Source: Clostridia bacterium
GTDB taxonomy: Bacteria > Bacillota > Clostridia > Oscillospirales > CAG-272
Direction of reading: 5' to 3'
DNA: 64,000 bases
Assembly: GCA_017463065.1 (NCBI GenBank)
Contig: JAFTPX010000009.1
Location: 13,256-77,255 of the forward strand
The position numbers and the translations under genes are program-made. A model generated the notes under the pieces. It saw only the letters and a program-made list of their open reading frames with translations, did no database searches and was not told where the DNA came from. The stretch's first letter is position 1, and each line of letters opens with the position of its first letter. This document shows positions 16,757 through 52,917 of this stretch, piece after piece.

Positions 16757-16785
16757 TTTACAAGGCGATAAGAAAAATGTATAAT
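16757..16785 (+). promoter_or_regulatory. Sigma-A-type promoter (TTTACA - 17 nt - TATAAT)
   Basis: tttaca at 16757-16762 and tataat at 16780-16785, with exactly 17-nt spacing, in a 190-nt non-coding gap. Confidence 0.6.
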
Positions 16786-16835
16786 ATAGGCTGTAAAATC
16801 GTGTACCACCTTAACGGATTTTGCATAACAAGCAG

Positions 16836-16877
16836 AAGCAGGCCGCCTTATCGAAAGATCGAGGCGGCTTGCTTTTT
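16836..16877 (+). terminator. Intrinsic terminator about 50 nt downstream of the promoter and upstream of the next gene
   Basis: aagcaggccgcct (16836-16848) pairs with aggcggcttgctt (16862-16874; 13 bp, one G-U). An inner atc-GAAA-gat extension follows, then a T run (gctttttgc). Confidence 0.7.
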
Positions 16878-16921
16878 GCACACCAACGACCCAAAACGGG
16901 GCATTTTGAGAAGGAGGCGTT

Positions 16922-17428
16922 ATGTTTTACATAATCATCGGACAAAGCGGATCGGGGAAAACCACATTCGCAAAAACGAATTTCCTTTCCGAGCCGATTG
17001 AGATCATAGAGGACATCATCCCTTACAGCAAATGCTCAAACGGGATCATCGCCCTCGGCAGATACGGAATCGGCAAGCGCACCGAGGGGACGGACACGCT
17101 CTCTTACAGCGCAAAGAACAACATCAAGAAGCTCCTTCGGAAGCTCAAACACGAAAACGTCCTCCTCGAAGGCGACAGGATCAACAACAAAGAGATATTC
17201 GACTTCATAGCCTCCCTCGGGGTTGGCGTTAAACTTTACCTCGTGACCTGCAGTTTGAACACGTCCATGAGACGGTTAAGAGCCGCGGGAAGCACGATTA
17301 CACCGTCGTTCGTGAAAATGACAAAGACAAAATCGAAGAGAATGTTTTTGGAATACGGACAGCGATTCAATGGAGAAATCATAAACACGGAGGAACAGGA
17401 CAATGCAAACAGCCATAATGAAACTTAA
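16922..17428 (+). CDS. P-loop NTPase / small kinase-like protein
   Basis: Walker A GQSGSGKT at residues 7-14. 168 aa, the size of a nucleotide-kinase fold. GGAGG RBS. Confidence 0.65.
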   Translation: MFYIIIGQSGSGKTTFAKTNFLSEPIEIIEDIIPYSKCSNGIIALGRYGIGKRTEGTDTLSYSAKNNIKKLLRKLKHENVLLEGDRINNKEIFDFIASLGVGVKLYLVTCSLNTSMRRLRAAGSTITPSFVKMTKTKSKRMFLEYGQRFNGEIINTEEQDNANSHNET

Positions 17429-49538: not shown

Positions 49539-49567
49539 TTGACATTGCCCCAAAAAGGGGCTATAAT
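49539..49567 (+). promoter_or_regulatory. Consensus sigma-A promoter (TTGACA - 17 nt - TATAAT) with an A/T-rich upstream tandem AGTT(T)GAAAAA x2
   Basis: ttgaca at 49539-49544 and tataat at 49562-49567. The -35 element is flanked by the repeated element aaaagggg. Confidence 0.8.
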
Positions 49568-50985: not shown

Positions 50986-51042
50986 GCAGGAAAAGAAAAA
51001 GGGGCGGGGAAACCCGCCCACAATGAAGAAAGGCACGTTGAC

Positions 51043-51532: not shown

Positions 51533-51934
51533 ATGACCTACATGGAAATTCAAAACGAGGTCGTTAAGAAGTACCGCATCGACCTCTGCGACGGGACAAG
51601 ATGCAAAGACGGAGATTGGAGCAGAACGCACGCACACGTCAAGAAGCGCAGAGTTTGCAAATGGAAACAGGCGAACAGCATTCAATCCACGTTTACCCTG
51701 TTTCATGAGATCGGGCACATCGAAGCAAACATGTCGTGGATGCGGCGGGCGGAGCAAGAGTACAGCGCAACCGCTTGGGCGATTGAGGAGTGCAAGAAAT
51801 ACGGCATCGAAGTCCCCGATAAAATCATCGAAGCGTACCAACGTTACATCGACGATGAAAAGGCAAGAGGCATACGCCGCGGAGGTAGCGGCTACGCAAA
51901 ATTGAACCTCAGAACATATTACGCAAAAAAATAA
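51533..51934 (+). CDS. Small HExxH zinc-metallopeptidase-like protein (ImmA/IrrE-like?)
   Basis: LFHEIGHIE motif with downstream Glu residues (AEQEYSA). AAGGAGG RBS. Confidence 0.5.
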   Translation: MTYMEIQNEVVKKYRIDLCDGTRCKDGDWSRTHAHVKKRRVCKWKQANSIQSTFTLFHEIGHIEANMSWMRRAEQEYSATAWAIEECKKYGIEVPDKIIEAYQRYIDDEKARGIRRGGSGYAKLNLRTYYAKK

Positions 51935-52022
51935 CGGCGATTCTTCCCCTACCACAGATCGGAATCGCCGTTATACCACAACGCTCACGCCCGGACGCTA
52001 TGTCCGGCAGAGCTTTATTGCG
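51925..52022 (-). ncRNA. Candidate ~95-nt minus-strand small RNA, the only convincing minus-strand transcription unit in the prophage
   Basis: A minus-strand promoter TTGACG-17-TATAAT, an internal hairpin ccggac/gtccgg, an 11-bp terminator stem aacggcgattc/gaatcgccgtt and A+T7. No ATG-initiated ORF lies inside. The ends are approximate. Confidence 0.5.
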
Positions 52023-52028
52023 ATCTGC

Positions 52029-52057
52029 ATTATACCGCAAAACGGAGATCCCGTCAA
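52029..52057 (-). promoter_or_regulatory. Sigma-A-type promoter on the minus strand (TTGACG - 17 nt - TATAAT)
   Basis: The complement of cgtcaa at 52052-52057 and of attata at 52029-52034. The spacer is exactly 17 nt. Confidence 0.6.
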
Positions 52058-52137
52058 GCAAGAATTTGGGAAATCGCAAAATATCGTCAGTTTGCACAAA
52101 ACCGATAACGATATCGAAAAAATATTCGGCACAATTA

Positions 52138-52166
52138 TTGACATTCGCCCGTACAATAGTTATAAT
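52138..52166 (+). promoter_or_regulatory. Consensus sigma-A promoter (TTGACA - 17 nt - TATAAT), divergent from the minus-strand promoter
   Basis: ttgaca at 52138-52143 and tataat at 52161-52166. Confidence 0.8.
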
Positions 52167-52184
52167 TAACTCACGCTCGAGTGA

Positions 52185-52400
52185 ATGAAGCCTACACAGA
52201 GAGGAGGTGCGATCATAGAAGCAAAAAAGAAAATGGGACGACCTACAGAGAACCCCAAGACCCGCCGTTTGGAAATCAGACTTTCGGAGAGCGAAAACAA
52301 GATGCTCGACGAATGCGCCGAAAGAGCCGAAAAGAGCCGGACGGAGATCATCGTTCTGGGCATCGAGTTAGTCCACAAAGAAGTACATAAAACGAAATAA
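52185..52400 (+). CDS. Ribbon-helix-helix (CopG/MobC-like) DNA-binding protein
   Basis: GRPTENPKTRRLEIRLSESENKMLDECAERAEKSRTEIIVLGIE has the RHH pattern. The alternative start is ATG 52233; the start is uncertain because the transcript start is predicted at ~52173. Confidence 0.55.
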   Translation: MKPTQRGGAIIEAKKKMGRPTENPKTRRLEIRLSESENKMLDECAERAEKSRTEIIVLGIELVHKEVHKTK

Positions 52401-52542
52401 CGGATAACCCCGCGCTCCCAAAGCAAAGATTATCCGTTCCACCGGAACGCTCGGATGAGCGTCACCAATTTCATCATATCTCAAAACGGATCGTTTTTCA
52501 AGAGCGACCGTTACATCTTGTAACATCGAAAGGAGTATCCCT

Positions 52543-52815
52543 ATGCAAAGAAACAACGACGTTATCATCAAAGCAAGCGAAAGAGAGGCACACGCCATCG
52601 CAGACAGCCCGCAGGCTGAAACAATCAAGGATCAGATTGACATTTCGTCTTTAGACGAAGCGGAAACAGAATTTGCGGATCTGCTGAAACAGATCCCGGA
52701 CGCGGACCTTCGCCATAAATTCGATATGGCCGTAGGGAGAATTTCATTCGCATACGAAAGACTTGGATTTGTGCAAGGATATATTTCAAATCGCTTGCTC
52801 AACTGCAATACATAA
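52543..52815 (+). CDS. Hypothetical protein
   Basis: AAAGGAG RBS. 90 aa. Confidence 0.45.
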   Translation: MQRNNDVIIKASEREAHAIADSPQAETIKDQIDISSLDEAETEFADLLKQIPDADLRHKFDMAVGRISFAYERLGFVQGYISNRLLNCNT

Positions 52816-52917
52816 TTTTTTTACGCAAACGCGACGCAAGGCGGGTCAATCCCGTTCCACGTGAAACGCAATTTGACCCGTATCGAAACCAAACCACACC
52901 TACAAGGAGGAATAACA

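Follow-up and report, generated by a model that had tools for sequence, protein, structure and literature searches.

The window analyzed here, that is, the whole 64-kb stretch of DNA, very probably contains, judging by its sequence features, a genuine gene for a non-coding RNA of ~97 nt that opposes the prophage genes. We denoted this RNA sRNA1. By analogy, it is best read as a cis-antisense countertranscript of the P22 sar and pMV158 RNAII kind. Our overall reading, to which we assign a probability of roughly 0.55, is that sRNA1 is a self-contained, solo small RNA gene of a wider family and would silence transcripts that cross the junction between an HExxH gene and a ribbon-helix-helix (RHH) gene. 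The preliminary description of this DNA had proposed a separately transcribed minus-strand non-coding RNA; this proposal gains comparative support from a homologue in the related phage contig L012, from a covarying family, and from a strand signature of G-U pairs, whereas transcription itself is predicted from these features. The locus includes the following elements:

51533 to 51934, plus strand: HExxH (HEIGH) gene from the ORF list, encoding 133 aa and converging on sRNA1
51925 to 52024, minus strand: predicted sRNA1 transcript, ~92-100 nt (about 97)
51931 to 51974, minus strand: sRNA1 intrinsic terminator hairpin, with an 11-13-bp stem, an 18-nt loop, and apical CUGUGGUAGGGG
51977 to 52022, minus strand: sRNA1 5' hairpin (predicted fold) with a CCGGAC/GUCCGG core
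52029 to 52057, minus strand: sRNA1 promoter, TTGACG (52057-52052), 17-nt spacer, TATAAT (52034-52029)
52138 to 52166, plus strand: RHH operon promoter, TTGACA-17-TATAAT, sigma-70-type
52185 to 52400, plus strand: CopG/Arc-like RHH gene, matching RHH_1 and phrog_876

The preliminary description had reported the minus-strand promoter and, at ~80 bp and facing away from it, the perfect promoter of the RHH operon; both are present as claimed, with 11/12 and 12/12 consensus matches, respectively, and they stand back to back, with 80 bp between the -35 boxes. At a threshold of 11/12 consensus matches, the whole window contains only five promoter sites, and the single one on the minus strand is that of sRNA1, which is followed within 140 nt by a hairpin and a T tract. 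Transcription would start at 52021-52024 and end within the U tract at 51925-51931. The RNA is, as previously described, free of ORFs and contains the CCGGAC/GTCCGG hairpin, with no ATG between 52022 and 51925. A small coding ORF was rejected, the sole GTG frame being 5 codons long, and tRNA and tmRNA identities were considered and rejected as well. In silico folding, a check that the preliminary description had suggested, gave a two-hairpin structure of -43.8 kcal/mol for the 101-nt sRNA1 (z = -4.07 against dinucleotide shuffles). The region ranks second in stability among 1,897 minus-strand 91-nt segments; the stability gap between the minus and plus strands (-5.8 kcal/mol) is within the background of the A-rich coding strand. 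The terminator hairpin, which has UGG in its apical loop and is preceded by the short G/U-rich spacer motif UUGUGGUAU, is formed by a 13-nt inverted repeat (51931-51943 and 51962-51974, 100% complementary, 18-nt loop) and followed by a U7 tract (51931-51925), the entire terminator element including the U tract spanning 51974-51925. It was correctly described as a stem followed by A and seven T on the minus strand and as located at the HExxH stop codon, the TAA (51932-51934) of which lies inside the stem base. The absence of a T tract on the plus strand was also noted, and indeed, the hairpin is followed there by ATACCAC. The HExxH stop codon together with the last two Lys codons makes up the A tract that corresponds to the U tract of sRNA1. 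The remaining sequence statements, including the plus-strand orientation of the other phage genes, all hold.

The hairpins could instead function on the plus strand, as a 3' stabilizer or weak terminator of the HExxH mRNA, with the minus-strand promoter present by chance. On that strand, the second hairpin, which is the complement of the sRNA1 5' hairpin (-17.6 kcal/mol), is followed by TTTATT (UUUAUU), a feature overlooked in the preliminary description, and might weakly terminate HExxH transcription. By our own estimate, chance alone would yield ~0.35 sites with at least 11/12 matches per strand in 64 kb. Against this explanation, the U tract is exclusive to the minus strand, and the sequence downstream of HExxH gene relatives in IMG/VR is unrelated and lacks such an RNA unit.

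Comparison with the related phage contig L012/L013 bears directly on the strand. The promoter-to-terminator unit recurs in this contig as a discrete block, 84% identical to sRNA1 (E = 1e-13). The block runs from the promoter to the U tract, and its gene context differs. The L012 promoter (TTGACA-17-TATACT) and the homologous terminator are spaced as in the window. The two differences in the terminator stem (A-U to G.U and C-G to U.G) pair on the minus strand only and are A.C mismatches on the plus strand; the L012 5' hairpin, with a different sequence and a GCAA loop, likewise includes a G-U pair whose plus-strand counterpart would be an A.C mismatch. The conserved promoter position and these mismatches argue against the plus-strand element, as does the 28 to 5 excess of G-U over A.C cells in the family alignment discussed below. 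In L010, the only natural variant of sRNA1 encountered (52008 C>T) destabilizes the 5' hairpin of the minus strand and leaves plus-strand pairing intact, in favor of the plus-strand explanation, which we nevertheless consider quite improbable.

L012/L013 is the sole independent homologue of sRNA1 itself. A DNA similarity search in phage and plasmid records produced no match, and a search of relatives and 400 family genomes with the sRNA1 DNA query and covariance model R1 (built from the window, L012, and three other sequences, and too narrow for diverged groups) retrieved only the two copies from the window; two further matches were rejected as ordinary host terminators. Exact-pattern scans of viral, metagenome, and genome collections for a conserved 25-mer of sRNA1 found none, and 13 matches to a shorter pattern were dismissed as chance, with none recognized by model R2 (see below).

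A second unit of the same build is located behind the RHH gene:

52389 to 52501, minus strand: sRNA2, with promoter TTGAAA-17-TATGAT (52501-52473) and an RNA of ~78 nt

In sRNA2, a 5' hairpin precedes the terminator hairpin (52438-52399), and the tail UAUUUCGUUUU adjoins the RHH stop codon (52398-52400); the unit is also conserved downstream of the RHH genes of L012, L014, and L015-L020. By this placement, sRNA2 is the canonical sister copy, and sRNA1, the displaced or solo copy. Both the position of sRNA2 and the exception that sRNA1 makes to the RHH rule had been overlooked in the preliminary description.

These two units belong to a wider family. Units of the same build are found behind homologous RHH genes in L012, L014, and L015-L028 and in more than 113 IMG/VR contigs. 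In 55 of the 115 pattern matches, the RHH stop codon is 70-91 nt from the promoter motif, and most of the other RNA-like units inspected in IMG/VR likewise face RHH-like ORFs. The next genes are usually of antirepressor types (Bro-N, ANT, Rha, ORF6N, or AntA), which the RNAs would normally gate. The family occurs commonly among phages that infect Firmicutes and Fusobacteria of the gut and mouth, and its terminator hairpin retains a conserved UUGG apical loop across very different phages. In the family alignment (17 sequences), 82% of the cells are paired compared to 61% in shuffles, changes on both sides occur in 12 of the 13 pairs, and the covariation score is 0.63 compared to 0.29 in shuffles (none of the 500 reached 0.63) and 0.13-0.18 in slid controls. 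The strand signature consists of 28 G-U versus 5 A.C cells, and the promoter strand folded better in all 13 units tested. An anti-Shine-Dalgarno switch is predicted in the antirepressor-linked members L014, L021, L024, L025, and L027; the copies in the window and in L012 gave no such prediction. The family also includes a subgroup with a CCGCCAAG loop, and stacked promoter-RHH-antisense RNA cassettes exist elsewhere.

Rfam contains no such family. The Rfam covariance-model search suggested in the preliminary description was run on the window and showed no match to sar or to plasmid countertranscripts: the sar model (RF00262) reached its gathering score nowhere in the window and gave nothing at E <= 10 in 51700-52600, and ctRNA_pT181, pND324, pGA1, and other plasmid countertranscript families had no match in the window. 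Related units at 15 other loci were also without a match to the Rfam plasmid countertranscript families.

The membership of sRNA1 was assessed with model R2, which was built without any window or L012 sequence. With filters off, R2 ranked sRNA1 (51925-51981, minus strand) first in the whole window, with 26.6 bits (E = 0.035, rough calibration), followed by sRNA2 (52389-52448, minus strand) with 18.2 bits (E about 1), and gave 33.8 bits for the L012 copy of sRNA1 (E = 0.002-0.02); the negative control, 127 kb of unrelated viral DNA, yielded nothing. In a larger search, the window sRNA1 drops out of the R2 list at E <= 0.1. Like the family, sRNA1 has a near-consensus sigma-70-type promoter that faces against the flanking genes and precedes an intrinsic terminator by 60-100 nt, and under R2, it has a 5' hairpin, a G/U-rich spacer (UUGU...), and a long UUGG-type terminator hairpin. 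It deviates in the apical motif (CUGUGGUAGG versus the family consensus CUUUGGUCGG), and its U tract adjoins the stop codon of the 133-aa HExxH gene and not, like that of sRNA2, the end of a converging RHH gene.

These deviations could indicate that sRNA1 is an orphan remnant of a former promoter-RHH-antisense cassette in which the RHH gene was replaced by the HExxH gene, perhaps still transcribed but with no regulatory role of its own. In line with such an origin, the inspected IMG/VR members face an RHH gene whereas sRNA1 does not and its L012 copy faces no gene, the apical motif is off consensus, and the sole SNP observed strikes the 5' hairpin. A dead remnant, however, would be expected to lose its promoter, hairpins, and U7 tract. 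The promoter still matches at 11/12 in both the window and L012 despite diverged flanks, and neither has lost a hairpin or the U7 tract, the stem changes being pairing-compatible. This weakens the remnant explanation, which we regard as rather unlikely.

A trans-acting role, with the single-stranded UUGUGGUA and CUGUGGUAGG motifs serving as seeds for phage or host mRNAs or as protein-binding sites, also merits consideration. Each RNA contains the G/U-rich motif twice, with both occurrences differing in the same way between the window (UGUGGUA x2) and L012 (UUUGGU x2), and the apical loop motif is kept across very different phages, a conservation that pure cis pairing does not require. Yet, among 15 local translation-initiation regions, the best predicted duplex (-39.9, shuffle mean -39.2) was no better than those of shuffled RNAs, and the pairing of sRNA1 with the sRNA2 target was not significant; we consider a trans-acting sRNA improbable. 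A convergent small RNA over the 3' end of a protein gene is also the layout of txpA/RatA-type toxin-antitoxin loci, in which case sRNA1 would serve as an antitoxin that overlaps a toxin mRNA at its 3' end. The ORF list shows no small hydrophobic ORF in either orientation. The product of the converging gene is a soluble HExxH protein of 133 aa, and family members lie opposite RHH repressor genes rather than toxins. We regard this explanation as highly implausible.

The HExxH protein matches the phrog_87 metallo-protease (E = 5.5e-4) and scores below threshold against Peptidase_M78 (ImmA/IrrE-like; 13.8 bits, cut-off 22). Regulation of the right-arm genes, possibly in concert with the RHH protein and the ImmA-like peptidase, is a hypothesis of the preliminary description. 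The RHH protein matches RHH_1 (E = 0.0037) and the phrog_876 transcriptional repressor (E = 1e-15), with CopG as its best solved relative (E = 0.028). Single-sequence searches with the RHH protein and the 90-aa protein encoded downstream recovered almost no relatives; a three-sequence RHH profile recovered a family of 1,780 clusters. An ATA at 52217, placed behind a GAGGAGG Shine-Dalgarno sequence and aligned with the ATG of relatives, may be the conserved start of the RHH protein. The RHH operon promoter is 81% identical to the operon promoter of L017-type relatives. Downstream of sRNA1, this promoter and the RHH gene follow, with no antirepressor-type gene, and downstream of sRNA2, the 90-aa protein, a DUF7659 protein, and a 222-aa protein are encoded, none with an antirepressor domain. 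The RHH/antisense module of the window is located after the lysis cassette.

sRNA1 is complementary to transcripts that cross the HExxH-RHH junction, and from this arrangement, we infer its target and the outcome. The strong housekeeping-type promoter would start sRNA1 constitutively near 52022, and the RNA would pair with plus-strand transcripts over the junction, either the 3' UTR of the operon whose transcription starts at 49539 or its read-through products. RNase III could cut the perfect sRNA1-mRNA duplex and/or the mRNA fold could change; the distal HExxH message would thereby be destabilized and read-through kept from the RHH operon. That operon would then rely on its own promoter alone, presumably repressed by the RHH protein. 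A search of sequencing runs found the phage in three DNA runs only, with no RNA run containing it. Because sRNA1 is not behind an RHH gene, the function of the family may not transfer to it.

More speculatively, and in our view doubtful, the antisense unit could be a portable gate that works without an RHH partner, a mobile post-transcriptional insulator of phage operon junctions. Two paralogous countertranscripts would then bracket the CopG-like repressor gene, and the solo copy would couple the upstream mRNA, which ends in the ImmA/IrrE-like HExxH peptidase gene, to the repressor module and shield this module from late or read-through transcription. Should this be the case, the RNA family would be a general insulator rather than a dedicated antirepressor control. 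If the two sRNAs are made, a prophage of an uncultured gut Oscillospiraceae bacterium pairs two antisense RNAs with a CopG/Arc-like repressor, a control that would act on a block of early-type genes. The solo copy poses the question of whether such a unit needs its repressor partner and usual target or can serve any operon junction. Cataloguing the family would aid phage annotation and flag antirepressor (induction-control) modules.

Among the analogies drawn in the preliminary description, P22 sar is apt, whereas P1 c4 and P4 CI fit less well because both are processed, trans-acting RNAs. The txpA/RatA and bsrG/SR4 loci of Bacillus prophages encode convergent transcripts with overlapping 3' ends and a two-hairpin sRNA; sRNA1 resembles these type I loci in all these respects and in its prophage location, but its locus lacks a toxin peptide ORF. 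In position relative to the HExxH gene, the nearest match is lambda OOP/cII. OOP is a 77-nt RNA directed against an operon, with its 3' part over the 3' end of the upstream gene (cII), and causes RNase III-dependent mRNA decay (PMC12197685). OOP overlaps about 55 nt of coding sequence compared to only about 10 nt for sRNA1, and the two RNAs differ in host group and show no sequence relationship.

Closer to the family is the copG-rnaII-repB dual-control region of pMV158/pLS1, where CopG is the closest solved relative of the window RHH protein. RNAII is complementary to the intergenic region between the copG stop codon and a point shortly before the next gene's translation signals and terminates at an intrinsic terminator (PMC4485353), a geometry shared by sRNA2 and the family. 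RNAII measures 48 nt and consists of one hairpin plus a 5' tail of 17 nt, whereas the family RNAs add a 5' hairpin and a long stem with the conserved UUGG apex. Unlike pMV158, the window element is a phage without a Rep gene, and unlike RNAII, sRNA1 is upstream of the RHH promoter rather than downstream of the RHH gene.

The P22 immI module (the "ant moron," Pant-arc-ant plus sar), a moron beside late genes (PMC2629481), combines, like the family, a gene for a small RHH repressor with a convergent antisense RNA of 60-100 nt behind it. As in the family, sar has its own promoter in the intercistronic region, and as in the wider family, antirepressor genes are downstream; sar represses without affecting the repressor gene (PMC12197685). 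No match in sequence or structure to Rfam sar was detected in the window, and sar covers the ant ribosome-binding site, whereas the family RNAs start upstream of the ribosome-binding site. sRNA1 further differs from the P22 arrangement in having no RHH gene in front and no recognizable antirepressor behind.

Directly downstream of the HExxH gene (a weakly metallopeptidase-like gene) of the prophage, whose contig belongs to an incomplete metagenome-assembled genome from the gut, a predicted minus-strand transcription unit, denoted sRNA1, faces away from the promoter of the RHH (CopG/Arc-like ribbon-helix-helix) operon. A similarly built unit, sRNA2, lies behind the RHH gene, which is thus bracketed by two minus-strand units. 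The features concerned are the following.

51533-51934: HExxH gene, 133 aa, with its TAA stop codon inside the stem base of the inverted repeat
51931-51943 / 51962-51974: perfect 13-nt inverted repeat with an 18-nt loop
52057-52029, minus strand: sRNA1 promoter, TTGACG-17-TATAAT, 11/12 consensus match
52138-52166, plus strand: RHH operon promoter, TTGACA-17-TATAAT, 12/12 consensus match
52438-52399, minus strand: long hairpin of sRNA2, preceded by a 5' hairpin and followed by the tail UAUUUCGUUUU
52501-52473, minus strand: promoter-like site of sRNA2, TTGAAA-17-TATGAT

Both promoters of the divergent pair claimed in the preliminary description are thus present, as is its terminator hairpin abutting the HExxH stop codon. 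The repeat is followed by A and T7 on the minus strand and by ATACCAC on the plus strand, in agreement with the claimed absence of a T tract in that direction, and the predicted RNA (about 52022 to 51922) contains no ATG, as expected of the open reading frame-free stretch of about 95 nt. The folding proposed in the same description predicts two hairpins (-43.8 kcal/mol, z = -4.07 against dinucleotide shuffles). Only five sites in the 64-kb window reach at least 11/12 matches to the promoter consensus; the single minus-strand one is the sRNA1 promoter and is followed by a hairpin and T tract, in a region that ranks second in stability among 1,897 minus-strand 91-nt windows. The promoter-site count and this rank rule out a chance pairing of promoter with terminator. 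No tRNA, tmRNA or Rfam family accounts for sRNA1.

The preliminary description had made its reading depend on conservation in related elements. Copies of the same phage from other samples are identical to the window or differ by one base. In one of them (L010), C>T at 52008 is the sole difference in 4.7 kb between the phage copies of two samples; it falls within the 5' hairpin of sRNA1, weakening the minus-strand pairing and keeping the plus-strand pairing, so that this sole natural polymorphism is evidence against sRNA1 as a minus-strand RNA. Close relatives of the RHH protein are scarce; one, at 66% identity, is encoded on the contigs L012/L013 of a related phage. There, the promoter-to-terminator unit is conserved (L012 200-315): blastn aligns L012 201-264 with window 51925-51986 (84% identity, E = 1e-13) in a block that begins exactly at the U tract, and a promoter (TTGACA-17-TATACT, 11/12) stands at the same distance as in the window, whereas the 5' hairpin upstream of the shared block is different and has a GCAA loop. 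The terminator stem differs at two places: on the minus strand, A-U is replaced by G.U and C-G by U.G, substitutions that become A.C mismatches when read on the plus strand. In L012, the homologue is flanked by another minus-strand unit and, on the other side, by a 185-aa gene lying before the RHH gene, and the HExxH gene is not adjacent to it; thus, what is conserved is the promoter-to-terminator unit itself. DNA downstream of HExxH relatives in IMG/VR is unrelated to the sRNA1 region, and sRNA1 has a single independent homologue (L012/L013), which counts against it.

The flanking unit in L012, in tandem with the sRNA1 homologue, is a third, unrelated minus-strand unit (L012 86-189; also L017 1628-1739 in another related phage). 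Its promoter reads TTGCCT-17-TGnTATAAT, the 5' hairpin is long and the terminator measures 11-12 bp. In related phages, the first gene of the same operon encodes 46 aa, and the unit overlaps that gene's stop codon.

sRNA2 is about 78 nt long (predicted fold -32.4 kcal/mol, z = -3.7), and its tail adjoins the RHH stop codon (52398-52400). Upstream in that gene (region 52199-52235), the spacing of the Shine-Dalgarno sequence GAGGAGG fits an ATA at 52217 that aligns with the ATG start of RHH relatives (MESTKKKMGRP / MEATKKKMGRP); no good Shine-Dalgarno sequence stands before the in-frame ATG at 52185. Judged by sequence, the RHH gene may start at a non-canonical ATA or its mRNA may have a short leader. 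Between the divergent promoters, four WWATCG boxes (52071-52117), including the palindrome CGATATCG, form a candidate operator for the RHH protein.

Searching with a profile built from three RHH proteins yielded 1,780 clusters, and loci of several of these were examined. Behind the RHH gene, L014, L015-L020 and L021-L028 carry an opposite-strand near-consensus promoter for a 60-90-nt RNA with a 5' hairpin and a terminator U tract abutting the RHH stop codon. In L015-L020, the RHH proteins are 61-69% identical to that of the window and the promoter is TTGACA-18-TGgTATAAT (12/12); in L021-L028, the next sense-strand genes encode Bro-N, ANT or Phage_pRha domains. One RHH cluster, located ahead of a terminase gene (L029-L032), lacks the promoter and has a bidirectional terminator alone, so the link between RHH gene and RNA is frequent, not universal. 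The 18-mer GATATAATRGATTTATCA, which in L014, L021 and L025 spans the -10 box and the start of the transcribed sequence, matches more than 113 IMG/VR contigs. Among the matches listed, a converging ORF fitting the RHH profile has its stop codon 70-91 nt from the motif in 55 of 115, and most other RNA-like units inspected face RHH-like ORFs of other subfamilies; sampled downstream genes encode Bro-N, Rha, ORF6N and AntA. The distinct terminator hairpins (n = 34) share the apical motif YUUUGGUCGG or UUGGCG, except for one subgroup with the complementary apex CCGCCAAG. No family unit examined matches Rfam.

The CCGCCAAG subgroup (L037, L038, L041, L043 and comparable IMG/VR loci) shares its promoter and initial transcribed sequence with the other members, and its apex complements their UUGGCGG motif, like strand-swapped loop-loop partners. 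After the RNA unit, the intergenic region of L015-L020 contains an imperfect palindrome, GTTCCACGTGAAAC, conserved ahead of DUF7659-side genes; the window copy (52854-52867) lies inside the hairpin GGGTCAA...TTGACCC. This motif possibly serves as an operator or leader structure. In L016 (2282-2629, NCBI assembly), a related RHH/DUF7659 block ends beside Mn-catalase/CotJB genes.

For the structure analysis, 17 members were aligned and 13 pairs modelled; window and L012 sequences were left out. Paired cells amounted to 82% (shuffles, 61%, 0/500 reaching the observed value; slid controls, 42-50%), 12 of the 13 pairs had changed on both sides (shuffle mean, 9.3; slid controls, 5-9), and the covariation score was 0.63 (shuffles, 0.29, 0/500; slid controls, 0.13-0.18). 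An A.C cell on one strand is a G-U on the other. The pairs include 154 Watson-Crick, 28 G-U and 5 A.C cells, and this excess of G-U over A.C identifies the promoter-bearing strand as the RNA strand. That strand also folds better in 13/13 tested units, by 3.5-13 kcal/mol; the background of this difference on the A-rich coding strand is -1.4 +/- 5.5 kcal/mol, so the value for sRNA1 itself, -5.8, is not distinctive.

A covariance model, R2, was built from these 17 members and run over both strands of the whole window with filters off; its E-values are rough. The hits were as follows.

51925-51981, minus strand: sRNA1, 26.6 bits, E = 0.035, first in the window
52389-52448, minus strand: sRNA2, 18.2 bits, E about 1, second in the window
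L012: sRNA1 homologue, 33.8 bits, E = 0.002 (E = 0.02 in an 824-kb search)

The two best of 128,000 positions are both sites predicted beforehand, and 127 kb of unrelated viral DNA yielded nothing at E <= 1. sRNA1 fits the consensus in the spacer (UUGUGGUAU), stem and apex; the apex is CUGUGGUAGG, versus the family form CUUUGGUCGG in L012. sRNA1 is a solo member of a widespread, uncatalogued RNA family, and the core claim of a small minus-strand regulatory RNA is, as a prediction from comparative evidence, well supported.

sRNA1 departs from the family in context. Members inspected are preceded by an RHH gene, whereas sRNA1 is preceded by the HExxH gene and its L012 homologue by none. The HExxH protein is weakly peptidase-like (phrog_87, E = 5.5e-4; Peptidase_M78, 13.8 bits against a cut-off of 22). 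Instead of an antirepressor gene, the RHH operon promoter comes after sRNA1; this promoter is homologous to the operon promoter of L017-type phages. The genes after sRNA2 (encoding a 90-aa protein, DUF7659 and a 222-aa protein) contain no antirepressor domains.

In modelled sense mRNAs of antirepressor-linked members, the antisense -10 region lies within a predicted hairpin whose 3' arm complements the following gene's Shine-Dalgarno sequence; in L014, L021, L024, L025 and L027, the antisense -10 box after the RHH gene is flanked by an inverted repeat that covaries. Blocking the RNA-complementary part lowers the predicted unpaired probability of the Shine-Dalgarno sequence (e.g., 0.57 to 0.16 and 0.57 to 0.09) and would move the anti-Shine-Dalgarno arm to where ribosomes bind on the antirepressor-side gene. 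This modelled folding suggests a switch. No such effect is predicted for the window (0.67 to 0.67) or L012 copies (0.49 to 0.62), and hence we infer a simpler cis-antisense mode for sRNA1. sRNA1 could pair without mismatch with the final ~95 nt of any plus-strand transcript leaving the HExxH gene; such a transcript could end at a weak plus-strand hairpin with UUUAUU near 52018 or run on into the RHH gene. By analogy with lambda OOP/cII, the duplex may be cleaved by RNase III and decay; alternatively, it may block read-through. A search of local start regions detected no trans target, and sRNA1 showed no significant pairing with the sRNA2 target.

Two other elements were noted in the window.

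16757-16880, plus strand: promoter TTTACA-17-TATAAT (11/12) in a 190-nt gap between two plus-strand genes, followed about 50 nt on by a GC-rich hairpin, GCAGGCCGCC...GGCGGCTTGC, and a T tract
51002-51019, minus strand: 7-bp all-GC hairpin, then CTTTTTCTTT, between two plus-strand genes

The former may encode a plus-strand small RNA of ~85 nt or serve the gene at 16922 as a leader/attenuator. The latter, with no minus-strand promoter nearby, is a terminator directed against antisense transcription.

Tests against the Rfam sar and ctRNA families placed the family in neither; in kind, the family, solo sRNA1 included, is that of the known sar and RNAII RNAs. In layout and gene content, the nearest system is P22 immI (arc, sar, ant) (PMC2629481, PMC12197685), and lambda OOP is nearest to the position of sRNA1 itself. 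The nearest in geometry is copG-rnaII-repB of pMV158, where RNAII, which ends in an intrinsic terminator, complements the stretch between the genes, from the copG stop codon as far as a point shortly before the repB translation signals (PMC4485353). Among relatives with a solved structure, CopG is also the one nearest to the window RHH protein.
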